Origin: a virus
DNA: 64,000 nucleotides
Reading direction: 5' to 3' (one strand)
Virus genome (UHGV): UHGV-0039337
The translations under genes were made by a program, and so were the position numbers. The notes beneath the pieces were generated by a model, which was not told the origin of the DNA, did not search any database, and saw only the letters and a list, made by a program, of their open reading frames with translations. Positions within the stretch are counted from its first letter, which is position 1. The number at the start of each line of letters is the position of its first letter. This document shows positions 10,041 through 61,337 of this stretch, one piece after another.

Positions 10041-10051
10041 GGAGTGATTAT

Positions 10052-10324
10052 ATGAGAGTATATAAAAACAGTTTAGGTATAACATGTATAGAACCAGCTG
10101 ATGGATATTTGCTAAGTAAGAACGGACAAACTTTTAAAAAAGCATGCTTAGGTAAAAATGATAGAGCTGAGTTATATACAGAAATAAAAAATGAAGATGT
10201 TGGACATGAAATTCAAAATACTACCTTTGATGTATCTGATAACATGATATTAATAAGTCCAAACGGAAAACGATTTAAATTAGTCGTCAATAACGATGGC
10301 TCATTAAGTACTAAAGAGATATAG
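10052..10324 (+). CDS. Small hypothetical protein (90 aa)
   Basis: ATG at 10052 preceded by RBS taaggagtgatt. The ORF track start at 10019 lacks an RBS and overlaps the preceding gene. Confidence 0.6.
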   Translation: MRVYKNSLGITCIEPADGYLLSKNGQTFKKACLGKNDRAELYTEIKNEDVGHEIQNTTFDVSDNMILISPNGKRFKLVVNNDGSLSTKEI

Positions 10325-10330
10325 TATACA

Positions 10331-10357
10331 GGGCCGGATTAATTCCGGTCCTTTTAT
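10331..10357 (+). terminator. Rho-independent terminator
   Basis: gggccgga-ttaa-ttccggtcc forms an 8-bp stem with one G.U wobble, followed by ttttat. Confidence 0.75.
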
Positions 10358-10409
10358 ATGTATTTGTATTTTACGTAATTCTATTATAAATAATAATTTA
10401 AAGGAGGTC

Positions 10410-10535
10410 ATTACACCTACTAATAATTATAATCCAGCTACCAAGAAATATGTTGACGACAAATCAGTAATAATCGATACAGATTTAAATACTGCTATAG
10501 CTAATATATTTGGATCAGATTATTCTATCTTATAA
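10410..10535 (+). pseudogene. Decayed N-terminal fragment of a tail-fibre gene (no start codon)
   Basis: The open frame reads ITPTNNYNPATKKYVDDKSVIIDTDLNTAIANIFGSDYSIL*. ATKKYVDD matches ATKKYVDN in the 15229 fibre and the KAYVD fibre motif. It sits after an RBS-like aaaggaggtc but begins at ATT. Confidence 0.5.
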
Positions 10536-10544
10536 TAATATAAA

Positions 10545-10576
10545 TAGAGCCGTTTTATTCGGCTCTTTTTTATGTA
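10545..10576 (+). terminator. Rho-independent terminator
   Basis: agagccg-ttttatt-cggctct is a perfect 7-bp stem, followed by tttttat. Confidence 0.75.
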
Positions 10577-10798
10577 ATTTTATTATAGAGATTAAAGTCT
10601 AAAGGAGGTCGTATGAAATTGCTGCTAATGACGACATAATAAAATCGTTATTAGATATTTTGGGATAAAAGAGATGCAAATATAATAGGTGCATCTATCG
10701 TTATTCAATTTACAGAAGTTACTATTTAAACTACAGATATTGAAGTAACTTCTATGTTAGATAAAATATTTACATAAATAATAAAAAGGAGTGCTAAA

Positions 10799-12265
10799 AT
10801 GGCTAATACTAAATTAATAAATTGCGATCAACTTCAAATTTCATTACAGAAAGTTAAAGATTATGTAGATGGTAAGTTTGCAGTAGCTGATCATAATCAC
10901 AATAATGTTTATTATACGCAAACACAAATAAACAATAAAATAAATAATATTAATTCTGCAATAGGCGGTAAAGCTAATGCAACACATTCACATAAATCAA
11001 GTGATGTTACAACCATGGGAGGATATTCTAAACCAGATTCTACTGGTGCTATAGCTACTACTGATACTTTAAATGCTGCAATTGGTAAATTAGAAACAGC
11101 ATTAGATGGTAAATCTAGCTCTAGTCATAATCATAATGGGGTTTATTTACCTATAAATGGTACAGCAGCTAGCGCTACTAAATTAGCTACAGCTAGAACT
11201 ATAAATGGTATAGAATTTGACGGTACTAAAGCTATAACTATAACAGCTAACCCTAATGCTCATAATCAGGCTTCAAATACAATAAATGCAATGACAGGAT
11301 ATGCTATAGCTAAAGCTTCTGCAGCAATAGCTACTACAGATAGTTTAAATACTGCTATAGGAAAACTAGAATATGCAATAGGACAAAAACAAGCTAGTGG
11401 TTCTTATGCTTCAGCCAATCATAATCATGATAACAGATATTATACAGAAACAGAAATAAATACTAAAATATCTGATTTACAAACTGCTGATACAAATAAT
11501 TTAGCTAATGCTAAAGCATATACTGATGCTGCTATTGATAAAATAACCGGAGAAGGCGTATCGGAAGCTCTTGATACATTAAAAGAATTAGGAGATGCAT
11601 TAAATAACGATGCTAATTTTGCAAGTACTATGACTACTGCATTAGCTGGTAAAGCAGATTCAAACCATATCCATGATGTTGCTACAACTACTACTGATGG
11701 ATTTATGTCATCTGATATGGTAACTAAATTAAATGGCATAGCTAATAATGCTAACAATTATGTGCATCCAACTACTGTTGGTAATAAACATATTCCTGCT
11801 GGTGGAGCTACAGGACAATTTTTAGGTTATTCAGCTGCTGGCACTGCTCAATGGGTAGCTAATCCTAATACAGATAGCAAAGTAAATACTGCAGCAGATA
11901 CAACTAGTACTAAATTATATTTAACTGGTGCTACTGGAGCTACTACTGCTGGATTGAAATATAGTTCATCTATTTTCTTTAGTGCTAAAGATGGTACCAT
12001 AACTGCTTCAGGGTTTAATGGCAAAGCTACTAGTGCCGGTTCTGCCGATACTGCTTCTGCTTGTTCTGGTAATGCAGCATCTGCTAGTAAAGTAAATAGT
12101 TCATTAACTATACAATTTAATGGTGTTAATAATAAAACATTTAATGGTAGTTCAGCACAAACAGTTAATATAACTCCTGCTTCAATAGGAGCTGCTACAA
12201 CTGCCGATACTGCTAAAGCAACAGACAAAGAAGTAAGCGATATGCTAACTACTATTTTTGGATAA
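10799..12265 (+). CDS. Tail fibre protein (488 aa) with phage tail-fibre repeats containing HxH motifs
   Basis: Strong RBS aaaaggagtgct. The N-terminus MANTKLINCDQLQISLQKVKDYVDGK is shared with the next gene. It has repeated ~35-aa units with DHNHN, THSHK, SHNHNG, NHNHD, NHIHD and TINGIEFDGTKAITIT. Composition is Ala/Thr/Asn-rich, typical of fibre shafts. Confidence 0.85.
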   Translation: MANTKLINCDQLQISLQKVKDYVDGKFAVADHNHNNVYYTQTQINNKINNINSAIGGKANATHSHKSSDVTTMGGYSKPDSTGAIATTDTLNAAIGKLETALDGKSSSSHNHNGVYLPINGTAASATKLATARTINGIEFDGTKAITITANPNAHNQASNTINAMTGYAIAKASAAIATTDSLNTAIGKLEYAIGQKQASGSYASANHNHDNRYYTETEINTKISDLQTADTNNLANAKAYTDAAIDKITGEGVSEALDTLKELGDALNNDANFASTMTTALAGKADSNHIHDVATTTTDGFMSSDMVTKLNGIANNANNYVHPTTVGNKHIPAGGATGQFLGYSAAGTAQWVANPNTDSKVNTAADTTSTKLYLTGATGATTAGLKYSSSIFFSAKDGTITASGFNGKATSAGSADTASACSGNAASASKVNSSLTIQFNGVNNKTFNGSSAQTVNITPASIGAATTADTAKATDKEVSDMLTTIFG

Positions 12266-12320
12266 AATATTTTATTTATGAAGCGTATATTAAAATTATA
12301 AAAAAGAAAGGAGATATTAG

Positions 12321-14939
12321 ATGGCAAATAATAAAAATATTACATTTGATCAACTTCAAACTTCTCTTAAAAAAGTAAAATCAGCTATCGATGGTAAAGC
12401 AAATACCAGTCATGGAAACCATGTTCCTACTACTGGTACAACCGATAACGCTACATATTTAAGAAATGATAATTCATGGCATAAAATAGTGCCTTCAGAT
12501 ATAGGTGCAGCCCCTTCTGTTCATGGGACACATGTCACATATTCTACAACTGCTCCGTCAGCTCCTGGAACTGCTTCTGCAGGTACTGCTGATAATGTAT
12601 CAAGAGGAGATCACGTACATCCTCTTCAAACTACAATAAGCGGTAATGCCGGTAGTGCTACTAAACTTGCCAATGCTCGTAATTTAACTGTAGGAAATAC
12701 AAAAAAATCATTTAATGGTACAGCTGATGTATCATGGAGTTTAAATGAAATAGGAGCAGCTGCTTCTGGTCATACTCATAATTGTTTTGCAATTAAAGGC
12801 GAAAATACTATATCCGGTATTGCAAATGATACTACAGAAAAATGGAAAGATCATGGTAATTCTGTACACTGGTATACAAAAGCAAATCAAATAACAGGTC
12901 AGCCTTCTCCATATGGTTTCCTTACTAACTGGGCTTCAGGTGGAGACGTTCATCAATTATGGATGACACAAAGTTCTGGAAACATGTTTCATAGAGGTGG
13001 TAATAATGATGGATGGTATGGTACTTGGAGAACAATATTAGATGAAAATAATTTTACTGCTTATTCTCCTACGTTAAGTGGTGGAGGAGCAATGGGTATA
13101 TGGGCAATTAGCGTTACTGGTAACGCAGGTACAGCTACTAAACTTGAAGAATCAAAAACTATAAATGGAACTAGTTTTGATGGTTCTAGTAATATAACTA
13201 CTGCTAATTGGGGTACTGCTAGAACTATTACTATAGGAAATAAAAGCAAATCAGTTAACGGTTCTGCAAATGTATCATGGACATTAGATGAAATAGGTGC
13301 TTTTCCGTTAACTGGTGGTATGTTGAGTAGTGGAGTAGGTATTGTAAATACTTATGGCGAAGCATGGTTTGATATTGGAGCCAATGATACATATGTATAT
13401 AATAAAAATAGCAATAAATCATTACAATTAAAGCATACTGGTGAATTAGTTTATGACGAAACATTTATTTTAGCTAATGAAGACGAAGGCGGTAAAATAA
13501 CTATAAAATCTACTGCTAATAATAATAATACAACAAATTATGGTGTTGGCGGTAGTGATATATATATAGATAACGTTAAAACAGGTAAAGCTTTGCAATT
13601 AAAAAATGACGGAACATTAAGATATAATGATAATATAATTTTAGATTCTAGCAACTATTCTTCTTATACTACTAGAAGATGTTGCGTAGTAGGACAAACA
13701 GGAAACTCTACAAGTAAACCTTATTATCTATTTGCTTATATAATTGCAAATGGATCTAACATGGATAGAGAAATAACATTTAAAGTAAGCACAGGATATG
13801 ATAATATTAAAGCTTCTGGTATATTAAGAGCACATTTAAGAACTAATTCAAATAATTATGTACAGAATGCACAATTATATTGGGAATATGCTAATACTGG
13901 TATAGAAGAAAGTAATTTTATCTTAGCATATGGTACAGGAGTGAATCCTACAGTTGAATTATGGGTTAAATGTGATGTAGCTTGGATGATGTATCATTTT
14001 GAAGTAATACAAGAAATTGCAAGAGACGAACATTATTTAGATCCTAAATGGATGTTGCAAACTTGTTGTCAAGAAGGTTATGCTGATTCTCCTACTAGTG
14101 GATATACTCAAGTGCCTAGTACAATTTTACAATTAAAAAATAGTGCACAATATGCATCAGCACTAAATGATGTTCAATATGCATCAGCATTGGATAATGC
14201 TCAATATACATCAACATTAGATAATGATATACAAATAGAAATAAATCCTTCATCAGGTAATGATAATGTTGAATTAGCAGATGGTGCAGTATATAAAACA
14301 ATTGCAGGAGTACTAGATGCATTACCTAAATTTTTAAACGGTAAACGAGTAAATATCTGGATGCGTGCTGATATAACTGAAAATGCAGACTTTCAAAATT
14401 ATACTAGTGGACAAATAAAATTTTACCTAGATGGACACACATTATACGGATATATTAGAAACTATATGAGTAGTGTTAAAGTGACTGTATATGGTGGATG
14501 GCCAGGTACCGAAAAAGGACATGTTGGAATAATTCACCCACCTGTAGGATGCGCAGTTGCCGGAAGAACAGGTAGCTTTATTTCACAAGAAAACTCCTCA
14601 ATGGATGCTTATAGCGTAAAAATATATGGTAGTGATAATCTGAATTCTTCTGGAACTTCCAATACTGTTGGTGTTATAGGAGACTCGTTTGCTACAATCT
14701 ATACTGAAAATGTTCAGTTTGTAAATTGTGATATAGGATTTAGGGGAAGTACCGGTGCTAGAATACATGATGCGAATTCAAGCGGTGTATGTAGTCAATA
14801 TGGTTATCAAGTTACAAGCGGTGCTTTCATAACAATTGATAACGCTGCCCACTGCGGTGGCAAAACTGCAAATACTGACCAAACATTGCCAGGGCAAATA
14901 ATAGCACACGCTAGCGCTACATATGCAAGCGGTAATTAA
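12321..14939 (+). CDS. Tail fibre protein (872 aa) with a paralogous N-terminus, a different distal domain and HxH repeats
   Basis: RBS aaaggagatatt. The N-terminus is MANNKNITFDQLQTSLKKVKSAIDGK. It has GHTHN, GDHVHP and RTINGTSFDGSSNIT repeats. The C-terminal ~250 aa are Gly/Ser-rich and beta-helix-like. Confidence 0.85.
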   Translation: MANNKNITFDQLQTSLKKVKSAIDGKANTSHGNHVPTTGTTDNATYLRNDNSWHKIVPSDIGAAPSVHGTHVTYSTTAPSAPGTASAGTADNVSRGDHVHPLQTTISGNAGSATKLANARNLTVGNTKKSFNGTADVSWSLNEIGAAASGHTHNCFAIKGENTISGIANDTTEKWKDHGNSVHWYTKANQITGQPSPYGFLTNWASGGDVHQLWMTQSSGNMFHRGGNNDGWYGTWRTILDENNFTAYSPTLSGGGAMGIWAISVTGNAGTATKLEESKTINGTSFDGSSNITTANWGTARTITIGNKSKSVNGSANVSWTLDEIGAFPLTGGMLSSGVGIVNTYGEAWFDIGANDTYVYNKNSNKSLQLKHTGELVYDETFILANEDEGGKITIKSTANNNNTTNYGVGGSDIYIDNVKTGKALQLKNDGTLRYNDNIILDSSNYSSYTTRRCCVVGQTGNSTSKPYYLFAYIIANGSNMDREITFKVSTGYDNIKASGILRAHLRTNSNNYVQNAQLYWEYANTGIEESNFILAYGTGVNPTVELWVKCDVAWMMYHFEVIQEIARDEHYLDPKWMLQTCCQEGYADSPTSGYTQVPSTILQLKNSAQYASALNDVQYASALDNAQYTSTLDNDIQIEINPSSGNDNVELADGAVYKTIAGVLDALPKFLNGKRVNIWMRADITENADFQNYTSGQIKFYLDGHTLYGYIRNYMSSVKVTVYGGWPGTEKGHVGIIHPPVGCAVAGRTGSFISQENSSMDAYSVKIYGSDNLNSSGTSNTVGVIGDSFATIYTENVQFVNCDIGFRGSTGARIHDANSSGVCSQYGYQVTSGAFITIDNAAHCGGKTANTDQTLPGQIIAHASATYASGN
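14145..14225 (+). repeat. Three tandem 27-bp units encoding AQYASALND / VQYASALDN / AQYTSTLDN
   Basis: The units gcacaatatgcatcagcactaaatgat, gttcaatatgcatcagcattggataat and gctcaatatacatcaacattagataat sit head to tail inside the 12321 fibre gene. Confidence 0.8.
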
Positions 14940-15154
14940 ACGACCGATAGTACTTCAGCCTAATACTTATTGCGACTAAGATTACTATAATTAAATCTAA
15001 TAATGGTATTATAAAAGGAGTTTTAATATTCAATCTACCTATATAATGCAGCAAACTATGCAGTATATTCTGGTAGCTTAACAATGAAAATTACTTACAC
15101 AGAATAATGTTTAGTTAAATTAACTAAGCAAAGTAATAATATATATGAATGCAG

Positions 15155-15189
15155 TAATAGGATTAGTCAAATATTAGCTAGTCCTATTA
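15155..15189 (+). promoter_or_regulatory. 12-bp-stem palindrome/hairpin immediately upstream of the 15229 RBS
   Basis: taataggattag-(11 nt loop)-ctagtcctatta gives 12 pairs including one G.U, followed by a T-rich tract. It lies in a 289-bp non-coding gap, the largest in the fibre cassette. Confidence 0.55.
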
Positions 15190-15228
15190 TTATGTATATA
15201 TTATTTACAGAGAAAAGGAGAAATATAA

Positions 15229-15767
15229 TGGCAAATTTAACATTTCTAGAAGCATTAAATAAATCATTAATTGCTACTAAAAAATATGTTGATAACTCAG
15301 TAGCTGGAATAGTGGATTCAGCGCCAGAAACTTTAAATACTTTAAAAGAATTATCTACAGCTTTAGGAGATGATCCTAATTTTGCTACTACTGTTGCAAC
15401 TAATATAGGAAAAAAAGTAGATAAAATAGAAGGGAAAACATTAACAGCTAATGATTTAACAAATGAATTAAAAGCTAATTACGATGCTGCATATGCTCAT
15501 AGTCAAGTGGCACATGCTCCAGCTGATGCACAAAAAAATAGTGATATAACTAAAGATGAAATAGAAGCTAAATTAACTGGTGATATAAGTTCTCATACAC
15601 ATAGCCAGTATTTAACAGAACATCAAAATTTGGATGAATATGCTCCTAAGAAATATGTGGATGATAAAATGGCAAATTTAAGTATAGTAAAAATATCTAA
15701 AACTGATTTTGAAGCATTAACTACAAAAGATGCTAATACTTTATATTTAGTATTAGAAGATTCATAA
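15229..15767 (+). CDS. Short tail-fibre-like protein (179 aa) with the shared N-terminal anchor motif
   Basis: ATG at 15229 with RBS aaaaggagaaatata. The track start at 15192 reads through the RBS. The N-terminus MANLTFLEALNKSLIATKKYVDNSVAG carries the KKYVD motif. SHTHSQY is a fibre-repeat HxH motif. Confidence 0.8.
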
Positions 15768-15792
15768 AACCGAATTTAAAGGAGAGGTTTGA

Positions 15793-17295
15793 ATGGCAAC
15801 ATTAAAAATAAAACCGTCATCTTACACTACAAACAAATGGAAAAATATAGAAAAAATGTATGATAATGATACCAGTACATACGCATCATGCACTGTTAAC
15901 TTGACTACTAATGATCTATCATGTGATCTTCATATAACTAAACCTTCCCTACCCGATTATTACATTATTAATAACATAAAATTACATTTAGTAGCAAGAG
16001 GTAAAACAATGACAAATGATGGAGGTCATTGGCTTAGAATATATATAAATGAAACTAATCAAATATCAGATTTACATTTAGGATTTTGTGATGGTATTGA
16101 ATATGATATACCATTAACAATAGATCAATATAATCAAATGAATGAAAATAATAGTATGAAATTAACAGCACATAGGGCCAACTCTAGAACTAACATTAAT
16201 ATTTATATATTTGATTTTTATATTGAAATAGATTATACCGATTTAAGTCAAACTATGATAACTGATACAAACGACGATATTTGGATTTATAAAAATGGAA
16301 CAATTACTATAGATATTAATGCTTATCCTAAAACATTAATAAATTGGTCAGTTGATAATCCAAATATAATAGATTTACAACTTATATCCAATGGATTTTC
16401 ATGCAATATAACAGGTAAAGCTGTAGGAGAGTGTATTGTAACTGCAGTTCATTCAGAAAATAGTGAATGTAAAACTCAATTCAAGATTAATGTTAATAAA
16501 TTAATTGAAAATAATTATTGCTCTTTTATATTAAATAACGTTACTTTGAATCATATTATGATAGGGGAACAAAATGTTGCTTTTGTTTATCTTGGAAACA
16601 CTAAAGTATTTGAATATAAAACTCATATACCATACAGTGAGTTTAAATTTAACACTTTAACAAAAGACTTTACCATGCCTTTATACACTAGATTAACTTC
16701 TCAAACATATACAAAAGCATATATAGATCGTCTTGATGGACATATACGTAATTATGCTGCAGCTCCTCCTGGCGAACTTGAGGAAGACGATAGTTCAATA
16801 GCAACAGTAGATTATATACCAGTATATGATAATGAAGAAATAATATTTAATTATCCATCGACTGAATATGGTATAGGATTATGTAGCTATACTGGAATTC
16901 ATGAATATTATAAAACATGGTTTGGTCCTGATAAAGGTTGGGGTAATTACAATATGAGTGATTCTGGTGGAGACGTAACCGGTACTACAACGACATGTAT
17001 TATTCCTGAAGGAGCTAAATACATAAGATGGTGTGGCAACAATATGACTGGAGAACAAATATTTGCTAGACGATATAGCGTACAAAATATCGATTTAATA
17101 CCTTATCCTCCAAATAGTACATATACTTTTAATACAGAATATAAATCTAGCGATGAGTCTGTAGCTGTAATTGAAGGTTCAATGATACGTGCTAAATCTG
17201 CTGGTAATTGCATTATAACTGTTACGCATGGTCAAATTAGTACAAATATTAATTTAACTATAATAGATAATAGCAATGATTTCACAACATATTAA
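15793..17295 (+). CDS. 500-aa protein with two bacterial Ig-like (Big_2-type) domains
   Basis: RBS aaaggagaggtttga. The Big_2-like segments are WSVDNPNIIDLQ...GKAVGECIVTAVHSEN and YKSSDESVAVIEGSMIRAKSAGNCIITVTHGQ. Confidence 0.75.
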   Translation: MATLKIKPSSYTTNKWKNIEKMYDNDTSTYASCTVNLTTNDLSCDLHITKPSLPDYYIINNIKLHLVARGKTMTNDGGHWLRIYINETNQISDLHLGFCDGIEYDIPLTIDQYNQMNENNSMKLTAHRANSRTNINIYIFDFYIEIDYTDLSQTMITDTNDDIWIYKNGTITIDINAYPKTLINWSVDNPNIIDLQLISNGFSCNITGKAVGECIVTAVHSENSECKTQFKINVNKLIENNYCSFILNNVTLNHIMIGEQNVAFVYLGNTKVFEYKTHIPYSEFKFNTLTKDFTMPLYTRLTSQTYTKAYIDRLDGHIRNYAAAPPGELEEDDSSIATVDYIPVYDNEEIIFNYPSTEYGIGLCSYTGIHEYYKTWFGPDKGWGNYNMSDSGGDVTGTTTTCIIPEGAKYIRWCGNNMTGEQIFARRYSVQNIDLIPYPPNSTYTFNTEYKSSDESVAVIEGSMIRAKSAGNCIITVTHGQISTNINLTIIDNSNDFTTY

Positions 17296-17380
17296 TAAAA
17301 ATATAAAAATACAGTTATAAATAATATTTATTTGAAAATAATTAAAAGACAATGTTATGTCAGTTAAGTATTATATTTTA

Positions 17381-17420
17381 ATACACCTTCTTATAATTTA
17401 ATAGGGGGGTGTATTTTATT
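17381..17420 (+). terminator. Putative rho-independent terminator
   Basis: atacaccttc ... gggggtgtat is a 10-bp stem with two G.U pairs and a 14-nt loop, followed by ttttatt. Confidence 0.5.
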
Positions 17421-17520
17421 ATGATTTTTTACAATAATAATAAAGAAGAGGCAGAAAAAAATATGGAACAAGTTTATGAATTACTAGCAGAAATTTTAAT
17501 AGAAAGCGAGAGTGATAATA

Positions 17521-18906
17521 ATGAAAAATCAATTACTTAATATAGCTTATTTGCGTTGTAGTACAGATGACCAAGATGTAGCACATCAATTATCAAGTAT
17601 AGAAAAATTCTGCGAAAGTCAAAATATAGTTATAGACAAAGTAATTAAAGACGAAGGCGTAAGTGCTTATAGTAAAAGTGCATATGAAAGAAAAGGCTTT
17701 AGTGAAGTAATACATTTAGTAGAAGAAAACAAGGTTAATAAACTTATATTATTCGAATCTTCTAGATTATCTAGAAATTTTCATGAAGGACAAAATTTAA
17801 TTAAATTCTTTAGTGACAAAAGAGTGGAGATATATAGTGTAGTAGATGGTGGTATAATTAATGCTACTGAAGTAGATGAATTATTAAATAGTATTAGGTA
17901 TTGGCTTAATCAAAAAGCCAGTAAAGAAACAAGTGATAGAATTAAAAGTCAAAAAAAGTTAGCTAAATCCAAAGGAGAATTTCTGGGACATCCTGTTCCA
18001 CTAGGATTTAAAATAGAAAACAAGCATGAAATTATAGACGAAGATAAGCGTAATTTTATTATTGAATTATTTAATACTTATATTAATCAAAGTTCTAGAG
18101 CATGTATAGATTTATTAAAAACTATAGGAATCAAAGCTAATCATCAAACGCTATTGCAAAGGATAAAAAATGATAAATATATACAAATAGTAGGAAAAGA
18201 TACTTTTAACAAAGCCCAAGAAACCATACAATCTAGAAGATGTAATAAAGGAAATAATACCAGAACTTTAAACAGGAGTAATATTTTATATGAGGGTTTA
18301 TTATACCATCTATGTGGTAGCAAACTTACAATAGATAAAAATAGAAAAGGTGAACCTGTTTTTAGATGTAGAAGATGCAAACATAATTTAGATATAAATA
18401 TTAAAAAATCTTTTATTGGTAATCCTTTAATGAACAATATTAACAAAGATATGTATGAAATAATCAATAATTTAGATAGGAATAAATTAGAAGAGAAGTA
18501 TAAAGAACGTAATAACAAACAACGCTCAATAATATCTTACAAAATACACGAACTAAAAGCATCTATTAAAAGCAAGAAAAAATCTTATGCTTTAGCTAAT
18601 AATAAATTAGAAAAAATATTAATATCTGATATGGATGATTCACTTATATCTACTGTGGCTAATACTGTTAACAATATAAAAAAAGAGATAGAAGAATTAG
18701 AAAAGGAATTAAATATTGAGCAAGAAAAAATAGATACTATAGACGAACAAGCGAAATTTAATGCTGGTTTAATTAATAAAATAATCAACTTAAAAGATGT
18801 GTATATAAACGGAAGTGACAAGAAAAAGAAGGCTATACTTAACTTTATGATAGATAAAGTAATAGTTTATGACATTGATAAGTTTGATATTTTTTTAAAA
18901 ATATGA
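17521..18906 (+). CDS. Large serine recombinase (resolvase/invertase catalytic domain plus recombinase and zinc-ribbon C-terminal domains)
   Basis: N-terminal IAYLRCSTDDQ carries the catalytic Ser. RLSRN and the resolvase fold motifs are present. The C-terminus has the Cys cluster CGSKLT...FRCRRCKHN and a long coiled coil, typical of phiC31/TnpX-type large serine recombinases. ATG at 17521 is preferred over the track's GTG at 17512. Confidence 0.85.
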   Translation: MKNQLLNIAYLRCSTDDQDVAHQLSSIEKFCESQNIVIDKVIKDEGVSAYSKSAYERKGFSEVIHLVEENKVNKLILFESSRLSRNFHEGQNLIKFFSDKRVEIYSVVDGGIINATEVDELLNSIRYWLNQKASKETSDRIKSQKKLAKSKGEFLGHPVPLGFKIENKHEIIDEDKRNFIIELFNTYINQSSRACIDLLKTIGIKANHQTLLQRIKNDKYIQIVGKDTFNKAQETIQSRRCNKGNNTRTLNRSNILYEGLLYHLCGSKLTIDKNRKGEPVFRCRRCKHNLDINIKKSFIGNPLMNNINKDMYEIINNLDRNKLEEKYKERNNKQRSIISYKIHELKASIKSKKKSYALANNKLEKILISDMDDSLISTVANTVNNIKKEIEELEKELNIEQEKIDTIDEQAKFNAGLINKIINLKDVYINGSDKKKKAILNFMIDKVIVYDIDKFDIFLKI

Positions 18907-18984
18907 TGGTTGAGCATTATAATAGTTGTTGCATTTATTATACTTAACCACAAAGGTAATATTTTATAGAAAGGAGCTGATGCA

Positions 18985-20934
18985 ATGGCTAAAAAAGAGC
19001 AGTTTGATGCTTTACAAATAGTAAATGACAGTCTAAAACTTTATGTAAAAGAAAAAATAGCAGAAGCGAAAATATCAGGTGGAGATGTTGATCTTAGTAA
19101 TTATGTTACTAAAATTACAGGTAATGCTAGTCAAATTACTTTTAATGATGGTCAATCTTTTCAAGATAAATTAAATAATGGCACTTTAAAAGGTGATAAA
19201 GGAGACAAAGGTAATGATGGTGCAATTGGACCTCAAGGACCTGCTGGTGAAAAAGGTGACCAAGGTGAAGTAGGGCCTCAAGGACCTGCCGGAGAAAAAG
19301 GAGATACTGGCCCACAAGGACTAGCAGGTGTTGATGGTACACCTGGAGCTAAAGGTGATAAAGGTGAAATTGGAGAACAGGGACCAAAAGGAGATACTGG
19401 ACCTGCCGGTAAAGATGGAGCTGATGGATTAACTACAGCTGTATCTGTTAATGGTGTTACTTATAACCATATTAATGGAGTAATTACATTGCCTAACTAT
19501 CTTAGTCAAATATATAAAACTCCTAAATTTATTACAACAACTACTACTTCATACAAAGATTCGTCAGGTAATACAGGTTTTACAATAGATTTAGGTATTC
19601 CTACGACTTCTGTATTATCTATAGATAGTATAGTTGTTACTGCTAAATATCAAAATACTGATTTAAAAATAACTCATGTAAAATTAGAAAACAATTCAAC
19701 TAATTGGAATTTATTGGCAACAGTAGAGGGATATGATGCTAATCAAAAATATACTGTATCAGTAGCCATATTTAATTATGGAGAAGAATTAACTGTAGCG
19801 GAAGCATTAAATAAATTATTTGCTAAAGTTTATTTAGGTTCTATATCTCCCGCTGGCTCTGGTAGTGGAGAAACTACTACTGAAACATTAACTATAAGCA
19901 ATATAGCAAATATAACACAAAATATTAAAACATCATTCTATATAGAATATAGCACTAATATAGCGGTGACAAAACATGAAGTATCGTGGGATGGTGGAGA
20001 CACATTCTATGATAAAACTGGTGACGTTACTTCTATTGGTAATAATCATAAGTTTTTACATGACGATAAAGCAAATGCTGGAACATATAACATGGCTATA
20101 AGAGTTACAACTGCTAAAGGTACAACTAAGACAAGTAATATATTTACTGTTACTTTAGTAGATAATAGTGAAGATGAATATGCTATGTCTTGTACTTCTG
20201 AATATATTCTAGACAAGATGTATCCAATGCCACAAAACCATGAAGCAGTACCGAGTGGTGTTACTGATACATGGGCTACTCAATCTCGTTGGGAGAATCA
20301 ACAAAGACCTACTGCCGCAGCACATAACTGTGGTCAAGCGAATTGTCCAGGAGCAGTACAATTTAAAGCTTTAGGTGCTTGGGCTAATGTATATAGAGTA
20401 AAAGATTCAGGATTTAGTTCTAATACTGGAGTTGAAATGAGAAACATAAAAGTTTACGGATGGTATAATGGTCAATGGGAAAAAGTACAAGATATGGCTG
20501 TGCCTGATGGTAATTTTTACACTGAAAGTTTCTCTGGAGATAGTAATCAATACTTTAGTGACAGTATTAAAACTACAAGCACTAGTAAAACTATAATTTT
20601 AAGAGAAAAAAATAAGGTTAATGGTGAAAACTGCATGTACCACCCATTCTCAAAAATAAAGAATTTTGATGTAAAATATGAATATGTATATACTTGCATA
20701 GATTTACGTAAGGTCAAATGGGATGAAAGTGGAGTAGATGATAGAGATAGTTCTCATTACTGTGCAAGTTGTGGTGGTGACTGGTGGTTAGCTGAAGGGT
20801 TAACATTTGATAGTAGTTGGCAACATAACAAAGGTGTAGCCCAACCTAAGATAATAGAAATTACAAATAAGTGGAGAAGATTCTCTATGACTACTGTTCC
20901 ACAAGACTGGACAAGTGGGTTTCCCACCAAATAG
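18985..20934 (+). CDS. Collagen-like tail fibre protein (649 aa)
   Basis: RBS gaaaggagctgatgca. The N-terminal [16 protein letters not shown] anchor motif is present. About 78 aa are uninterrupted G-X-Y repeats. It is followed by an [13 protein letters not shown]...VSWDGG domain that is paralogous to a segment of the 21692 protein. Confidence 0.85.
19192..19427 (+). repeat. Collagen-like G-X-Y triplet repeat coding region
   Basis: [79 protein letters not shown]. Confidence 0.9.
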
Positions 20935-21685
20935 TGATAGTGAAAATGAAACTGTAACAGTTGATGCTCTAGAAATATTGCCTTCATTTACTTATGCTGA
21001 TATTCCAGAAGAAGGAACTAAAAATTTATATGTAAAATTATCTAGTAAACCAGATTCAGATATTATAGTAAATACTACTTCATCATCACAATATTTATCT
21101 TGTTCACCTTCTTCATTGACTTTTACAAATACAAATTGGAGCGTATCACAAAAAATAGCTATAAGCTCATTAAAAGATAATAATGAATCTGATGATACAT
21201 ATAATATAACATTGTCATCAAATGATTTATCTTCTAAAGTTTCAATAGAAGTTACTGATGCTTCTAATAGCAATTATGAAATGTTATATGATAATGGTGT
21301 ATTATCTCATGGTACTTTGACTTTAAACAATGCTACAAATTATGGAAGCTATATTACAATAACTCAAAACGAAAATTCTTCTGTTATGATAAGTGGTTAC
21401 CCTATATCATTAAATAAAAATGATAAGGTTTATTTACAGTTAGGATTAGACACATCAGACCCAGCTTCTACATATTCTATAAAAATAGGTCAACTTGGAG
21501 ACTCATCAGCTAATGACATAAGTAATAGTAATATGCTTACAGAGCAACAAATATCAAACGCATTAGATGGTGATAAAATATTAACATATTGGACTGTAGC
21601 AAATGCAGTATCAAATATTGATTTAACCATTACATCATATTATGCTAGAGTTAAAATTTATAAGATATATATTGAAAGGGGGTAG
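20915..21685 (+). CDS. 256-aa lectin-like module, possibly a +1-frame continuation of the 18985 product or an independent or pseudogenised ORF
   Basis: GTG start with no RBS, overlapping the last 20 nt of the upstream gene in the +1 frame. Its C-terminal domain ([17 protein letters not shown]...[15 protein letters not shown]) is paralogous to aa ~750-880 of the 21692 protein, where it is fused in a single polypeptide. Confidence 0.5.
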
Positions 21686-21691
21686 TAATTT

Positions 21692-24600
21692 ATGGCTAAT
21701 CAAATAATAAATTCAAAAAATTTAACTTCAAAAGAAATTCCAGAATTATATATAAGATATTTTAATTCAAAGGTAAAAATAAATACAGATATAACTATTC
21801 CTTATTATGTATCAGATAATACTCAAGCTGAATATCTAAATAATAGTAATGCTAAAAGTTTTACAACTATAGTTACATTTAATTCAAAAGTATTTTCCAG
21901 CACTACTACTGCTGGAGAATTTACTATTAATATAGGGTCTGTATCTACTGTAGGAGAAACTTATTTTAGTATTTATACTATAGATAACAATGGTGTTGCT
22001 AGCGCGGAACAATTTTTTGATATACTAATTATAGATGATACATATCCAATAACTCAAAGTCAAACTTACACTATGACTTCAGCAGATTTATCTACTTACA
22101 ATATAAAAGCTGGAGAGTCTGTATCTATAAGTGATGCTAAATTAAACGGAGCATCTTTAATAAGTTTATTTAAAGGAGTTAAAGATAAAGGTTATAGAAA
22201 AATTATAATGCTTAATAATATCTATATGCTAGATTACCATGGAAATAAAGTTATTCTTCCAGACCAATTTACTGTGGATATGAATGGGGCAACTTTTAAA
22301 GCTACACAATGTAATGATATAAATGTAGCTAATTTAGTAGATTTAAGAGATTGCTTTGATTCTCATGTAATAAACGGAAAACTAATTGGTAATTATGATG
22401 GATTTGATTTTGCGGCAACAAAAACTAATACTAATTATAACATACCTGGAGAAGGATTGGCTGTTGCTGAAATTAATGGTGCTAGATATTCTTCATTTGA
22501 AAATATGGATATGTCTTACTCAGTAGGGTATAACTTAGGAGTTTTCGGTGGAAAAAAATCAGGGTATGTTGGAACTCCAGGAAAATTAGCTTTTAAGAAT
22601 CAATACTATATTGATGCCAATGGAAATCAAGTAAATAGTTCAGATATGTGTACAACTGATATTATAGATATTTCTACTTTATTAGACAGAGGAGAGTTAC
22701 AATGTAGTGTATATTTAGGATATGGAGGATTATCATTAGATAAAGCAGAATTATTTATACATTTTTACGATAGCTCTCAAAAATATCTAAAAACTATAAA
22801 AACTAGACAATATCAAATAGTAAAGATTCCTGCAGGAGCAAATTATGTAAGAATAACTGGGTTTACTTCTGTAACTGAATCTTCTGGTTTAACTATATGT
22901 TGTACAGGACAAGCGACTAATTGTGAATTAATAAATATAAAATCTCATAATACCAGAACTTGTGCTATGCATCCAGGAATTTATAATCATCTGCTTATAA
23001 AAGATTGTACATTCAACAAAGTTGCAGATGAGAATGAATATAAAGTAACTAAATTAGCTTTAGACTTTGAAGATGGATATGAAAACGGAAGAAATTTATT
23101 CTTTATAAATAATGAAGTATATGATGGGACTTCAGCACTAACAGTTCAGAGATGTTTTAATTGTAATGTTATTAAGTGTAGAAATTTTGGATTAGACTTA
23201 AGAGGACATATAAAAGGAGCTTTAATTAAAAATAATTTCTTTAATGAAGGAAGCATATATACAACTAATTTTGATTCCCAATCTCATATGAAATTAGATA
23301 ATAATACATTCTTCAGATCTTTGAAATTTTTAAAATGGGATGATAAAGGAAATTACCCTACAGTAGGATTGACTAATTTAGACTGTAAACAAAATTATCA
23401 AAATAATTCTAATACTAATGTAGTAATAGATAATGCTGTTAATGGAAGTGGTAGTGGAGGAGCTCCATCTCAAACATATTATAATATTATAAATAATATA
23501 TCAAATTGTACTACTGATAATAGTGATAATTTAGTATTGAAAGATTCTTCATATAAAGCTACGATAACTCCAAAGAGTGGATATGATATAACTTCAATAA
23601 CTGTAACTATGGGTGGAGTTGATATAACTTCTACTGCATTATCTGGACATACGATAAATATAGAAAAAGTTACTGGAAATGTTAATATAAATGTAACTAC
23701 TAAAGAAATAGAAAGTTATAGAATAACAAATAATTTAACTAATTGTACAAATTCAAACACTACAAGTAGCATATTAAAGAATAAAAGTTATAGTGGTACT
23801 ATAGTATCTAATGAAGGATATGATTTATATAGTATAACAGTAACAATGGATGGAACCGATATAACTTCATCTTCTGTAAGTGGAAATTCTATAAATGTAT
23901 CTAGTGTAACCGGAGATATTATTATAACAGCTGTATGTACTACAGAAGTGACTGAGGTTATATATGACAACGGTACTCTAAATAAAGGTACATTTAAATT
24001 GAAGAATGCTACTGCTGAGAGTACTTATATCAGAATAAATCAAAATCAAGATTCTTCTGTTACTATAAATGATTATAAATTAACTTTGAATAAAAATGAT
24101 AAAGTTTATATGGATATAGGATTAGATACTGATAGTCCATCAAATGGATATTCTATAAGAATGCTTCAATTAGGAGATTCTTCAGTAAACAATTTTACAA
24201 ATACAAATATGATAAATGAATCTCAAATATCTACTGCTTTAAATGGTAAAGATAAAGTTACTATATATTGGACTATAGCAAACACAGTATCTAATATTGA
24301 TTTAACATTAACATCATATTTTGCTAGAGTTAAAATATTTAAAATTTGGATAGATAAAAATTCTACCGAATCTGGAGGTGGAGGAACCACTCCAGAAACA
24401 TTAACTATTAGTAATATATCCAACATGACACAACCTGCTCAAACAGAATTTTATATAGAATATACTACAAATATAGCTGTAGTAAAACATGAAGTGTCAT
24501 GGGACGGCGGTAACATGTTCTATGATAAAACTAGCGATGTAACTTCTAATGGAACATCATATAAATTTAAACATGATAATGCAGGAACTGCTGGAACATA

Positions 24601-26026
24601 CAAAATGGCTATAAGGGTTACTACTTCAAGTGGAGAAACTGTAACAAGTAATATATTCACAGTTACTTTAATGAATGATAATGGATTAGTTTTCACGCAG
24701 TATAAAAAATTAGATGATGGTGTAGTTACAGATACTACGGATACGAAATACCATAGTACTATTAATAAAATATCAGTAACTCCATCAGCAAAATATACAC
24801 TTGATCTAAAACCTGTAAGTTATGTTTGTATATGTTTCTATGATAATAATGACACTTATTTAGGTAATAATTCAGGGGGATACATAGAAAACCATACATC
24901 AGATTGGTCAGTTGGTTCATTATCAACAACTTTTACTGTGCCAGCTAGTGCTTCATATATTAGAGTATGTGGTACAACTGATGATACACAAGTAACAGGA
25001 ACACTAACTAAATCTTCTTCTGGTACAGGTACAAGTACAAGTGAATTATTAGATAGTGATGGCGCTTACGTTATAGATGATTTCTCAAGTAACACAATAG
25101 ATTCTAATAAATGGTCATATGAATTGGGTTACGTAAGAAATAATGAAACTCAAAGATATACAAATACAAACGCTGAAGTCAACGACGGTATATTAGCTTT
25201 AAGAGGTTTAAAGGCCAGTGATGGTTCATGGACATCTGCATCTATTATTTCAAAAGGTCACTTCGCCTTCATGTATGGTAAAATAGTTGCCAGAGTTAGG
25301 GCTTGTAACTTAAATGGAGCATTTGGAGCATTTTGGACTTTAGGTGATTCATTTGAATTTGGATATAAAGAAAATGGTAGTCCTGATACATTAGGTGAGT
25401 GGTGGGCATACTGTGGTGAGTTTGACGTTATGGAATTTTACAATGGAAAATTGACTTGTGGCACTTTCTTCAATCAAAAGGAAGAAAGTGGACGTGTATG
25501 GTACAACAATTATCCAACTGGTGATTGGCATGAATTCGCAATGGAATGGAAAACTGACGGTACATTAATTTTTACTATTGATGGTAATGAGTTAAGTAGA
25601 ACAAACGCAACAGATAATAGAGCATTCCATATACCACACTTTATACTACTTAATCAAGCAATTGGTGCTAGTGGTGGTACTCCTGATAGTAATACTACAG
25701 AAATCACTCAATACGTTGACTGGGTTAAATATTATCCACTAAGTACCGATAACGTAGTATTAAATTCTAGTGACTTTACACTAGCTGCTATGGATGCTAA
25801 TGATAGTTCACATAACTGTATGGTAAGACCTACTTTTAATGACAACTGTATTAATAAATCATTAACATGGAGTTCTAGTAATGATAGTCTTGTATGGGTT
25901 CATAGTGGATTATGTAGTACTTATGCAGGAGCTAATGGTGAAGTAATAATAACTGCCACTTCACACTCAGGTGTATCAAAACAAATTACATTAACAGTAG
26001 CAGACGGAATACTACGTGCTAAATAA
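21692..26026 (+). CDS. 1444-aa tail fibre/depolymerase with internal tandem Ig-like repeats, a C-terminal GH16 (beta-glucanase/laminarinase-like) domain and a terminal Big_2 domain
   Basis: RBS gaaagggggtagtaattt. The GH16 catalytic signature is GEFDVMEF (E-x-D-x-x-E) in a Con-A-like context (WTSASIISKG...GAFWTLG). The terminal Big_2-like segment is LTWSSSNDSLVWVHSG...GEVIITATSHSG. Confidence 0.85.
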   Translation: MANQIINSKNLTSKEIPELYIRYFNSKVKINTDITIPYYVSDNTQAEYLNNSNAKSFTTIVTFNSKVFSSTTTAGEFTINIGSVSTVGETYFSIYTIDNNGVASAEQFFDILIIDDTYPITQSQTYTMTSADLSTYNIKAGESVSISDAKLNGASLISLFKGVKDKGYRKIIMLNNIYMLDYHGNKVILPDQFTVDMNGATFKATQCNDINVANLVDLRDCFDSHVINGKLIGNYDGFDFAATKTNTNYNIPGEGLAVAEINGARYSSFENMDMSYSVGYNLGVFGGKKSGYVGTPGKLAFKNQYYIDANGNQVNSSDMCTTDIIDISTLLDRGELQCSVYLGYGGLSLDKAELFIHFYDSSQKYLKTIKTRQYQIVKIPAGANYVRITGFTSVTESSGLTICCTGQATNCELINIKSHNTRTCAMHPGIYNHLLIKDCTFNKVADENEYKVTKLALDFEDGYENGRNLFFINNEVYDGTSALTVQRCFNCNVIKCRNFGLDLRGHIKGALIKNNFFNEGSIYTTNFDSQSHMKLDNNTFFRSLKFLKWDDKGNYPTVGLTNLDCKQNYQNNSNTNVVIDNAVNGSGSGGAPSQTYYNIINNISNCTTDNSDNLVLKDSSYKATITPKSGYDITSITVTMGGVDITSTALSGHTINIEKVTGNVNINVTTKEIESYRITNNLTNCTNSNTTSSILKNKSYSGTIVSNEGYDLYSITVTMDGTDITSSSVSGNSINVSSVTGDIIITAVCTTEVTEVIYDNGTLNKGTFKLKNATAESTYIRINQNQDSSVTINDYKLTLNKNDKVYMDIGLDTDSPSNGYSIRMLQLGDSSVNNFTNTNMINESQISTALNGKDKVTIYWTIANTVSNIDLTLTSYFARVKIFKIWIDKNSTESGGGGTTPETLTISNISNMTQPAQTEFYIEYTTNIAVVKHEVSWDGGNMFYDKTSDVTSNGTSYKFKHDNAGTAGTYKMAIRVTTSSGETVTSNIFTVTLMNDNGLVFTQYKKLDDGVVTDTTDTKYHSTINKISVTPSAKYTLDLKPVSYVCICFYDNNDTYLGNNSGGYIENHTSDWSVGSLSTTFTVPASASYIRVCGTTDDTQVTGTLTKSSSGTGTSTSELLDSDGAYVIDDFSSNTIDSNKWSYELGYVRNNETQRYTNTNAEVNDGILALRGLKASDGSWTSASIISKGHFAFMYGKIVARVRACNLNGAFGAFWTLGDSFEFGYKENGSPDTLGEWWAYCGEFDVMEFYNGKLTCGTFFNQKEESGRVWYNNYPTGDWHEFAMEWKTDGTLIFTIDGNELSRTNATDNRAFHIPHFILLNQAIGASGGTPDSNTTEITQYVDWVKYYPLSTDNVVLNSSDFTLAAMDANDSSHNCMVRPTFNDNCINKSLTWSSSNDSLVWVHSGLCSTYAGANGEVIITATSHSGVSKQITLTVADGILRAK

Positions 26027-26120
26027 TAGATGATATCGGCAGTAATAATGAGAAGTAAAATAAAGAAATATTTTATTATATATAGCGTTAATATCATATT
26101 TATAAAATGTTTAATATAAC

Positions 26121-26149
26121 GAGAGGTCTTTTACAGACCTCTTTTATTA
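26121..26149 (+). terminator. Rho-independent terminator
   Basis: agaggtct-tttac-agacctct is a perfect 8-bp stem, followed by tttattat. Confidence 0.75.
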
Positions 26150-26200
26150 TTTATTCACTTACCGGTAATATTTCAATGAATGAAAGGAGTGATAATTCAT

Positions 26201-26713
26201 ATGTCAGATAATTTAATACATCCTTATTACAATCATGGTTATGCCCGTTATGATATAGATATTAATGATGTAATAGCTGGTCTTAAAAAAGCCGGATATA
26301 TATTAGATGATTCAGATAACGATACGGATGATAATTTTGATAATTTAGACTCTAGCTTAAGGCTTGAAGTGTTAAGCACTCGTGGCACACGTTGTAATAG
26401 TACAGGATTTAATACAATATTATACCCTAGATTATATAAAAATAATATAGATATAACAGATGAAGTACCTGTTAGTAATTTTAAATGGAGAAGAGTTAGT
26501 GGCAATAGTGAAGTAGCTCGTCTTGAGGATGCCGAATGGAATTTACGTTATGCTAATGGTTCTAAAGAATGTTACGTTACAAAAGATGATATAAAACGTA
26601 ACAGTACATTTACATGTTTATATGTAGAATATGAATATCAAGATGTAGCTTATGTTAATACAGCGTATAAAGCTTATATAAATAATGCAAATTTAAATGG
26701 TGGTGATAATTAA
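26201..26713 (+). CDS. Hypothetical protein (170 aa)
   Basis: ATG at 26201 with RBS gaaaggagtgataattcat. The track start at 26180 reads through the RBS. The stop overlaps the next start (taATGg). Confidence 0.7.
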   Translation: MSDNLIHPYYNHGYARYDIDINDVIAGLKKAGYILDDSDNDTDDNFDNLDSSLRLEVLSTRGTRCNSTGFNTILYPRLYKNNIDITDEVPVSNFKWRRVSGNSEVARLEDAEWNLRYANGSKECYVTKDDIKRNSTFTCLYVEYEYQDVAYVNTAYKAYINNANLNGGDN

Positions 26714-28197
26714 TGGCTTATGAAAAGGTAAAAGCCACTGCTTCAGTTACAATAGTAGATGAAACTGATGCTTCGATACTTACTGGTAATATGCTTGTAG
26801 TTAAAGGTAGTAAGAATCAGATATATATAACAGGTCAAGGTAATCCTTATTCTCCTGACTGGACTAAAAACAATCTTGTTATTCGTCCTTTCTTACAGGC
26901 TAGTAATATTACTAAAGAAGATTCAACTAATGTTGAATACAATCCTGATTTATTTGATCCTAAAGAATATCCTAATTCTATATCTACTTATGGATATATA
27001 CGTGATATACATTGGTTTATTCGTGATAATGCGGGAGTAGAAAAAGAGTTACTTGATTCTAGTGATTGTTCTTTCTCTTATTCTTACAATATAGATGGTA
27101 TTGCTACTATGTGTACTGATGGAAGACAATTAGTAATTAGGGCTAACATGCTATCTAAAAATACTACTGCAGATATAGTATGTAAATTTAGTTTTTATGA
27201 TCCATTTGCTAATATGTATATTAGTCAGCAACTTGAAACTACTATAATTAATATTGCGAGTGGTCAATCTAACAGTAAACTATTAACATCTTGTGTTAAC
27301 GGTAGCGCAATAACCAATACAGGAAATTCATATATAGATATTATAGCTAAATTTTATGATGATACTGGAGAAATAAATATAGATGAATTAATAAGTAATG
27401 GTGATGCTAACGTATCATGTTTATGGTATATAAGACGTTATGATGGATGGATACTATTAGATCCAACAGAAGCTGGTCAAAGCTCAGCTAATATAGATAC
27501 TATGATGTATAAAATAATGAGAGTTAACTCATATAATGATGTTAGCGGTACATATGAATTAGTCGATTCTAATAATGCAAAAGGTAATGCAGCACTTCGT
27601 ATTTATCCTGCATTTATATCAGGATCTGAAATAATTAAATGTGTATTTACCGATCCTACTGGAGCTAAATATAATTCATTACAAGTAATATATGATGCAA
27701 CTGATCCTACTAGTGTTGAATTATATTGTAGTAACGGTAAAAGACTTAAAAAAGGTAGTATAGAAAATACTACTGTTAAAGCTATCGTTACTTATAAAGG
27801 TAGTCTATTGGAAGATGATAGCCCATTATACAATACAGAATTTGATTATTATTGGTATAAATATACTATAACAGATGATGTATATGTTAATGTATATAAT
27901 GATGCCAACAATAATCTTATAGAGAACGCTGATTTAAACAATCCTATAAAAGGTAAAAGAACTTTATTTATTAATACAGATGCTATTACATCTGATGAAA
28001 AGGAAGCGCGTTTTAGTCTTGATTTAGTTGAATATGGTGCTTTATCTGCTGAAAGTGCACAGGCTAATTATTTAGCCAATGCTGTATCAGAAGAAGATTT
28101 AGCTACTGCTATGGCTGTTAATAATAATATTGGTATGAATGAAAATGATGTGCAAGCTGCTATTGTTACAGCACAAGAATTAAATACTTTAGAGTAG
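26713..28197 (+). CDS. Virion structural protein (494 aa), paralogous N-terminus to the next gene
   Basis: N-terminal MAYEKVKATASVTIVDE versus MAYTALAKASVTIELFE in the 28209 gene. Start is translationally coupled to the upstream stop. Confidence 0.75.
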   Translation: MAYEKVKATASVTIVDETDASILTGNMLVVKGSKNQIYITGQGNPYSPDWTKNNLVIRPFLQASNITKEDSTNVEYNPDLFDPKEYPNSISTYGYIRDIHWFIRDNAGVEKELLDSSDCSFSYSYNIDGIATMCTDGRQLVIRANMLSKNTTADIVCKFSFYDPFANMYISQQLETTIINIASGQSNSKLLTSCVNGSAITNTGNSYIDIIAKFYDDTGEINIDELISNGDANVSCLWYIRRYDGWILLDPTEAGQSSANIDTMMYKIMRVNSYNDVSGTYELVDSNNAKGNAALRIYPAFISGSEIIKCVFTDPTGAKYNSLQVIYDATDPTSVELYCSNGKRLKKGSIENTTVKAIVTYKGSLLEDDSPLYNTEFDYYWYKYTITDDVYVNVYNDANNNLIENADLNNPIKGKRTLFINTDAITSDEKEARFSLDLVEYGALSAESAQANYLANAVSEEDLATAMAVNNNIGMNENDVQAAIVTAQELNTLE

Positions 28198-61079: not shown

Positions 61080-61094
61080 GGTGGTGAAAATATC

Positions 61095-61310: not shown

Positions 61311-61337
61311 TACAAATAAGAAAGGATGTGATGAATC

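Follow-up and report, generated by a model that had tools for sequence, protein, structure and literature searches.

The closest described counterpart of the system considered here is SprA (YokA) of SPbeta, a large phage of Firmicutes, whose directionality factor is the small protein SprB (YotN). Both by structure and by profile, SprA is the closest match to a large serine recombinase (LSR) along its entire length, from the catalytic and recombinase domains through the zinc ribbon to the coiled coil. This LSR is encoded on the + strand at 17521-18906 of a 64,000-nucleotide stretch of the virus genome UHGV-0039337; this whole stretch was analysed and is referred to as the window. The integrases of phiC31, Bxb1, A118/LI and TP901-1 share the same domain set and use a simple phage attachment site (attP) of ~40-50 bp, an imperfect dyad with a non-palindromic central dinucleotide. 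In these phages, attP lies close to the integrase gene. Their genomes are temperate, ~40-55 kb in length, and carry the integrase beside lysogeny control genes, whereas the gene in the window is located in the tail-fibre cluster of a phage of ~271 kb. A serine recombinase beside tail-fibre genes is likewise found in the Gin/Cin/Pin/Hin group of invertases (Gin of Mu, Cin of P1, Pin of e14). These proteins, however, have ~190 amino acids (aa) and a C-terminal helix-turn-helix (HTH), with two inverted ~26-bp sites flanking alternative fibre 3' ends on opposite strands, while the window combines a 461-aa LSR, genes all running in one direction and one site.

With moderate confidence, the region can be read as a complete large-serine-integrase module, consisting of a 39-aa leader micro-gene, the 461-aa LSR and a 46-bp attP-type site with a GT core at 18928-18929. 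The giant phage is probably able to insert into a host chromosome, and we infer this integration from the anatomy of the module and from the context of its family. The new elements are the family-wide prediction of the attachment (att) site and the conserved partner encoded by the small open reading frame (micro-ORF). A preliminary description of this DNA, made from its letters, had noted a serine recombinase inside a fibre cassette and proposed three explanations, namely an attP that splits the cassette in the prophage, a device that excises, inserts or exchanges fibre cassettes, or a hitchhiking mobile cassette. The first of these fits, with a palindrome of 22+2+22 positions abutting the stop codon and a counterpart in 15 of the 16 loci compared, as discussed below.

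The open reading frame (ORF) at 17521-18906 comprises 462 codons including the stop, which gives a protein of 461 aa; the length of 462 aa reported earlier had counted the stop, and the identification as a serine recombinase was confirmed by Pfam, PHROG and fold comparison. The sole Pfam domain detected in the protein is Resolvase (PF00239) at residues 8-153 (E 1.6e-22), PHROG 95 'integrase' matches at 4e-47, and PHROG 'DNA invertase' profiles match the catalytic domain. The serine previously assigned to catalysis in the motif RCSTDDQ is indeed S14, within LRCSTDDQ, and an alignment of 30 family sequences shows R12, S14, R82, R85, C265 and C286 to be invariant and H263 nearly so. A resolvase-type catalytic domain with its Ser nucleophile and conserved Arg residues is present. 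Pfam misses the recombinase and zinc-ribbon domains in the window protein itself; Zn_ribbon_recom is matched by 8 and Recombinase by 4 of the 30 family members, and the profile built from their alignment reaches phiC31 Int and aligns to SprA over positions 51-447.

The AlphaFold2 (AF2) model of the recombinase has a mean confidence (pLDDT) of 86 and supplies the domain map. The catalytic domain (residues 1-150, with a long E-helix) is followed by a helical recombinase domain at ~163-240 (helices 174-239). Next come a zinc ribbon of beta-strands at ~261-299, with H263, C265, C283 and C286, a coiled coil of ~110 residues at ~320-430, and C-terminal strands. The zinc ribbon is thus not C-terminal, as the preliminary description had it, since the coiled coil and the final strands come after it. 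The top Foldseek matches of the model in the PDB are full-length SprA (9dxd/9dxh, E 1e-15), Bxb1 (9iu2) and the LI Int of Listeria (4kis). The large C-terminal region typical of LSRs, with recombinase domain, zinc ribbon and embedded coiled coil, is recovered by the family profile and the model together. Because of the reach of the profile, the domain matches within the family, the predicted architecture and the full-length fold matches, the protein is best described as a divergent yet complete LSR with intact catalytic residues. Its identity to SprA is ~17-18%, and the att sites and integrated state of SprA are experimentally known, while the attP described here is a predicted one.

The candidate attP was recognised by comparison among homologous loci and occupies 46 bp at 18906-18951, with no strand assigned. 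Its left arm, ATGGTTGAGCATTATAATAGTT (18906-18927), opens with the last base of the recombinase stop codon and ends in ATAATAGTT before the GT core at 18928-18929, and its right arm, TGCATTTATTATACTTAACCAC (18930-18951), opens with TGCATTT; the P arm plus GT reads ATGGTTGAGCATTATAATAGTTGT. Symmetry between the arms holds at 14 of 22 positions. In contrast to the phiC31, Bxb1, A118/LI and TP901-1 setting, this site begins within the stop codon, and its surroundings yielded no recognised lysogeny gene. The search of the flanking DNA proposed earlier, for a palindrome of ~40-50 bp around a central dinucleotide, thus returned a site of this size. The same description had seen neither an attP nor lysogeny genes; the former was overlooked directly past the stop codon, while the latter observation held, as no lysogeny regulator was recognised in the ORFs scanned.

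An imperfect palindrome after the recombinase stop was present in all nine homologous loci first read. Scores were then computed at 16 loci for all possible 22+2+22 palindromes in the 10-40 nt past the stop, and in 15 of these loci the top-scoring one lies at an offset of 22-26. Within the jumbo clade, GT stands at offset 22 between arms of equal length in loci L010 (15/22 symmetric) and L026 (13/22), and at the identical offset in L058, where symmetry is weaker (~9/22 by hand count). The core is constant within each recombinase clade and never palindromic: it is GT in the jumbo clade (the window, L005, L010, L026 and L058), AC in L027 and L028, AA in L013, L017 and L040-L043, and TC in L015, L018 and L045-L047. 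Both arms co-vary clade by clade. Among the jumbo relatives, the 46-bp site is 70-78% identical, as against a difference of 65-72% at synonymous sites of the recombinase gene, and in strain L005 (98% identical) attP differs solely at the 2 nt flanking the core. By comparison between loci, the sequence at 18906-18951 has the properties of an LSR site, with a length of ~40-50 bp, imperfect half-sites and a non-palindromic dinucleotide. Its anatomy is that of an LSR attP, and it is treated here as a predicted, candidate site.

An alternative role of the palindrome as a transcription terminator was considered and ruled out. The sequence is AT-rich and, as RNA, not unusually stable (z-score -1.5), and in small phages separate terminators, distinct from the site, follow the palindrome at an offset of ~67. 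The palindrome is better read as a DNA site than as a hairpin. The terminator-like hairpins said to flank the recombinase therefore amount to one, at 17380-17415 upstream, since the downstream one is the 46-bp palindrome.

One small-phage relative, L047, deviates at 11336-11400, where an insertion of ~10 nt interrupts the right arm (9/22 symmetric) and phage genes continue downstream. This site may be degenerate; a host junction was ruled out as the source of the deviant arm, the change being an indel inside phage DNA. No second att-like site or cluster of half-sites was found in the 64 kb, where a half-site consensus returns the two arms of the site itself and chance-level matches. The sequence at 17361-17377 matches with 3 mismatches and was rejected as a second site, as it is not kept in relatives. 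Scans for tRNA genes and Rfam families around the candidate attP found no element.

The relatives of the recombinase provide the context in which this site can be interpreted. Family members at 34-51% identity reside on phage contigs of ~40-45 kb, between late (structural or lysis) and early genes. In L012-L015, L047 and L059-L062 the gene comes directly after the endolysin, and in L027 and L028 it lies between structural and early genes, with no endolysin identified there. This small-phage position is the ordinary integrase slot. The closest homologues, in contrast to these, come from large contigs of up to 153 kb, with identities of 76% (L026), 67% (L058) and 64% (L010). In all three the recombinase occupies an equivalent place, directly upstream of homologues of the window's tail genes for proteins of 170, 494 and 988 aa. 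The unit keeps one position in at least four diverged jumbo phages, with or without the neighbouring 7.2-kb block described below.

Phages larger than 200 kb are usually discussed as virulent, and a 2026 review of jumbo-phage biology never uses the words 'temperate' or 'lysogen'. This treatment lends some weight to the view that the jumbo phage acquired the cassette from a small temperate phage and carries it as a relic or selfish hitchhiker that has no function for its carrier. The same view draws on the nearest non-jumbo relatives, which at 48-51% identity are integrases of ~40-kb phages, and on the compactness of a unit bounded by a terminator-like hairpin. The pattern of inheritance argues in the other direction. 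The ratio of non-synonymous to synonymous substitution rates (dN/dS) of the recombinase is 0.09-0.13, as against 0.12-0.35 for adjacent core tail genes, and remains at ~0.1 over saturated synonymous divergence; in strain L005, all 15 nucleotide changes in the gene are synonymous and none is non-synonymous. The att site and the micro-ORF are conserved together with the fixed position in four lineages. The arrangement is also identical in 16 of 16 contigs with an identical recombinase and in 21 of 21 contigs with the 170-aa protein, so that presence is invariant among these 16-21 contigs. A search of IMG/VR for relatives of the 494-aa tail gene, aimed at lineages without the recombinase, returned no such relatives, and a plasmid collection yielded remote LSRs alone. 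Because of the conserved position, the low dN/dS, the synonymous-only strain changes and the invariant presence, the unit is better regarded as a resident than as a passenger. It is inherited vertically under strong purifying selection and does not look like a decaying relic or a sporadic hitchhiker, which makes the relic improbable and leaves the hitchhiking mobile cassette of the preliminary description an unlikely explanation.

The interpretation as an integrase module has to be weighed against several observations that speak against it. A palindrome of 14/22 is not rare in an AT-rich window, where 60 positions in 64 kb reach that score; since the score alone is common, the case for attP rests on the comparison between loci. 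A host attachment site (attB), recombined junctions (attL/attR) or an integrated copy was not found in any contig inspected. Instead, the palindrome is complete and flanked left and right by phage DNA in every one of these contigs, among them 16 that encode the identical protein and 5 with P0031. Across 185,579 species, each represented by one genome, a scan returned a single relative, a phage-only contig binned with a metagenome-assembled genome (MAG) of Cellulosilyticum. The phage itself was recovered as free contigs of ~270-271 kb with differing break points, one of them at ~890x coverage. Finally, no repressor, HTH or other lysogeny gene was recognised in the scanned ORFs of the 64 kb, and the genome continues for ~207 kb beyond the window. 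The layout of a lysogeny module, with an integrase beside immunity or regulatory genes at the junction of late and early genes, is not the one seen around the unit in the jumbo phage, where it is flanked by fibre and tail genes.

These observations bear on a further explanation, in which the LSR is active through its single site but not for chromosomal lysogeny. It would, for example, resolve the phage's own circular or plasmid-like genomes to monomers, or mediate integration into another mobile element. Characterised LSRs are not known to synapse a pair of identical attP sites, and multimers are normally resolved by small resolvases acting at res sites with multiple subsites. By contrast, the window has a single simple 46-bp site, and the position of the gene in small phages fits an integrase and not a resolvase. 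On the other side, every family contig was seen in the unrecombined 'attP' state and none within a bacterial chromosome; genome, metagenome and viral contig scans and 12 contig look-ups gave the phage form alone. The phage also appears as a free replicon of ~271 kb, and circular extrachromosomal jumbo prophages are known, such as pBtic235 of B. thuringiensis (PMC9700832). This explanation is judged unlikely, while keeping a modest share of the probability.

The integrase module is also adjacent to the most variable part of the fibre cluster, which raises the question of whether the enzyme could act on the fibre genes. The genes upstream of the unit are different in each of the four jumbo relatives, being unrelated or mosaic. 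Downstream, in the window phage alone, lies a fibre block of 7.2 kb (18965-26163, + strand), which comprises three genes and its own terminator (~26122-26146) and is absent from L010, L026 and L058, where the homologue of the 170-aa gene directly follows the att site. The block is bordered on the left by a 10-bp direct repeat, GGTAATATTT, at 18955-18964 (+), 3 nt past the palindrome, and on the right by the second copy at 26164-26173 (+), after which a 5' leader (CAATGAATGAAAGGAG) leads into the conserved tail gene for the 170-aa protein (26201-26713, +). The repeat occurs exactly twice in the 64 kb, compared with 0.61 copies expected by chance.

Such a unique pair of repeats around a block beside the site, together with the clear movement of fibre modules between phages, could suggest that tail-fibre cassettes dock or are exchanged at the adjacent site through the LSR, which would alter host range. 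The borders of the block do not agree with this. When the window is aligned with L026 and L010, whose sites are 'empty', the left junction falls 3 nt beyond an intact palindrome, both arms of which match those of relatives, so the insertion did not take place by a crossover at the GT core; overall, the junctions lie 3-13 bp outside the palindrome. For the same reason the block was rejected as an LSR-inserted cassette, as its junctions coincide with the 10-bp repeat, and the weak palindrome at the right border (13/22) scores no better than expected by chance. The 64 kb hold no second att-like site or half-site cluster with which the first could be paired, and no significant inverted repeats or inverted fibre segments were found in the 9.5-27 kb interval. 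The block is carried by 21 of 21 contigs of the window phage, structural variants in L005, L006 and L008 lie far from the candidate attP, and more than 30 phage loci share the fibre modules, none with this recombinase. With all genes on one strand and a single site, the proposal of fibre-cassette excision, insertion or exchange is not supported and appears highly improbable.

Related mechanisms were rejected on similar grounds. Inversion or shufflon-type switching of fibres fails on enzyme size, number of sites and gene orientation, besides the lack of inverted repeats in the same 9.5-27 kb. An LSR transposon of the TnpX/TndX type (like Tn4451 or Tn5397) does not agree with one site alone, a position fixed in four relatives and block ends on which inspection revealed no inverted repeats. 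The repeat GGTAATATTT was also discarded as a general promoter motif, as it has two copies alone in the window and does not precede fibre genes elsewhere.

The fibre genes around the integrase module nevertheless show extensive exchange by other means. Modules of the block are 73-90% identical to genes of other phages without the window-type recombinase. Specifically, residues 904-1444 of the 1444-aa protein (21692-26026) are 75-86% identical to fibre proteins from ~30 phage contigs in IMG/VR that measure 12-72 kb (loci L064-L095). In most of them, a module lies ~1 kb away that is 55-75% identical to the C-terminus (residues 617-872) of the 872-aa protein (12321-14939), whose gene lies upstream of the recombinase in the window. 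C-terminal modules of the receptor-binding type are thus common to the 271-kb phage and to much smaller phages, which, judging from these identities, implies recent exchange of host-recognition modules between them. Ordinary recombination between co-infecting phages, through homology or microhomology, and not this LSR, is the best explanation for the diversity of the fibres.

Several further variants were recorded in the cluster. The 204-kb contig L077 (IMGVR_UViG_3300045988_156249) carries at 7600-16400 homologues of the 649-, 256- and 1444-aa fibre genes, with identities of 58-90%, in a different order and partly reiterated; neither the recombinase nor the 170-aa gene occurs within 25 kb of them. 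The 'intergenic' gap at 10325-10798 is a deletion scar, as L005 has a gene for 365 aa between 10410 and 10438, the 3' end of which is retained in the window. Inside the collagen-like gene at 18985-20934, L006 and L008 have ~1.6 kb of extra DNA at 20154-20175, so that their fibre protein exceeds 1150 aa, compared with 649 aa in the window. Several assembly breaks fall within 19.2-25.5 kb. Internal paralogy at 70-80% nucleotide identity links 19858-20157 with 24371-24670, 21285-21453 with 23961-24129, and 21572-21675 with 24251-24354, the partners being the 649-aa and 256-aa genes on one side and the middle of the 1444-aa gene on the other. This paralogy suggests duplication and fusion within the fibre block.

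On the upstream side, the integrase module begins with a short regulatory region. A weak sigma-70-like promoter (AAGACA-17-TATTAT) was detected at 17346-17374 (+) by consensus scan alone; its hexamers are retained in the strain variants L005, L006 and L031 and not in L026 and L010, and it may be the own promoter of the recombinase unit. Behind it lies the stem-loop at 17380-17415 (+), followed by a T-rich tail, which was found by a terminator scan and folds as RNA with a free energy (dG) of -20.5 kcal/mol (z -6.97). L026 (z -3.8) and L010 (z -6.0) have hairpins that correspond to it. No covariation supports the hairpin, and it is probably just the terminator of the upstream fibre operon, because the strains L005, L006 and L031 have changes that weaken its stem and no compensating ones, and because L058 uses a different terminator. 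Its 3' arm (GGGGGG) doubles as the Shine-Dalgarno sequence of the micro-ORF.

This micro-gene, at 17421-17540 (+), encodes an acidic peptide of 39 aa (MIFYNNNKEEAEKNMEQVYELLAEILIESESDNNEKSIT). It overlaps the start of the recombinase gene by 20 nt, and the codons of its acidic tail carry the recombinase Shine-Dalgarno sequence. The preliminary description had proposed a 25-aa upstream ORF at 17463-17540; the ORF and its overlap are real, and the gene callers and homologues extend it to the ATG at 17421. It is called as a gene in every contig. ATG-started acidic ORFs of 34-43 aa precede the recombinase in 10 of 18 loci, overlap its start by 8-38 nt and share the motif (I/V)(F/Y)(Y/F)..(D/E)..L(Y/L)(D/E)LL(I/A)(D/E)I(L/I). 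Similar frames were seen by eye in L015 and L027, the latter with a non-ATG start. The dN/dS of the micro-gene is 0.19-0.27 among jumbo relatives, and a PHROG search with the micro-ORF peptides gave nothing significant.

A regulatory role of the micro-peptide, or one as a recombination directionality factor, is offered here as a hypothesis only. Its reading frame differs from sprB in overlapping the gene of the recombinase. A more daring proposal, which we regard as doubtful and something of a long shot, is that the 34-43-aa micro-protein could be a built-in partner of the LSR (a minimal directionality or activity factor) whose translation would be gated by a hairpin that sequesters its Shine-Dalgarno sequence. 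The unit would then make the 271-kb phage truly temperate, with its receptor-binding genes split in the prophage. In a bolder variant of the same proposal, the site would also be a landing pad that captures fibre cassettes.

In the mechanism envisaged for the integrase module, two LSR dimers would bind attP and the host attB, cut at GT, rotate and religate, so that the genome of ~271 kb would be inserted and the fibre cluster split at 18928/18929. One end of the prophage would then carry the upstream fibre genes and the recombinase, with host DNA beginning 22 bp away, and the other end the downstream fibre and tail genes; excision would restore the continuous cluster. The hairpin and the overlapping micro-ORF probably hold translation of the integrase low, or regulate it otherwise, and the fibre genes around the unit would vary by ordinary recombination, without the LSR.

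The window has 29% GC and is a strand-uniform part of a jumbo phage of ~271 kb, with all long ORFs on the + strand. Three gut samples yielded stand-alone assemblies of 269,929, 271,133 and 271,111 bp, each broken at a different point, and no near-identical DNA was found among GenBank phages. Tail-fibre-like genes with PHROG or Pfam matches lie on the same strand both upstream of the recombinase (10799-12265, 12321-14939, 15192-15767 with Phage_tail_C, and 15793-17295) and downstream of it (18985-20934 with collagen repeats, 20915-21685 and 21692-26026), which bears out the co-directional placement between fibre genes described previously. Further downstream, at 26713-28197, the conserved 494-aa tail protein is 22-25% identical to tail-fibre proteins of SPO1-like Bacillus myophages, a similarity that hints at a lineage of Firmicutes-infecting myoviruses. 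At 3591-10040, precomputed annotations of a 2149-aa protein include a Pfam match to CotH (spore-coat kinase-like), unusual for a gene of a virion module, and a faint match to LRR_5. Three successive cell-wall hydrolase genes occupy 59479-62252, with matches to PHROG endolysin, Glucosaminidase, and Amidase_3 with SH3_3.

Temperate jumbo phages have precedents, as oral jumbo prophages have been reported (PMC7782811). These prophages, like pBtic235, exceed 200 kb and have a temperate or carrier lifestyle in Firmicutes, while the window phage is known here as free contigs. In practical terms, the clade offers divergent LSRs whose 46-bp sites are predicted and have four different natural core dinucleotides, a type of reagent in demand for genome engineering, and the previously undescribed, conserved micro-ORF partner is directly testable. 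The locus also shows that the presence of a recombinase in a fibre cluster does not by itself imply fibre switching. In a recurrent clade of ~271-kb human-gut phages, an integrase that is under selection and accompanied by its attachment site suggests that some giants can lysogenise Firmicutes. If true, this would bear on how the persistence, host range and gene transfer of giant phages are read.

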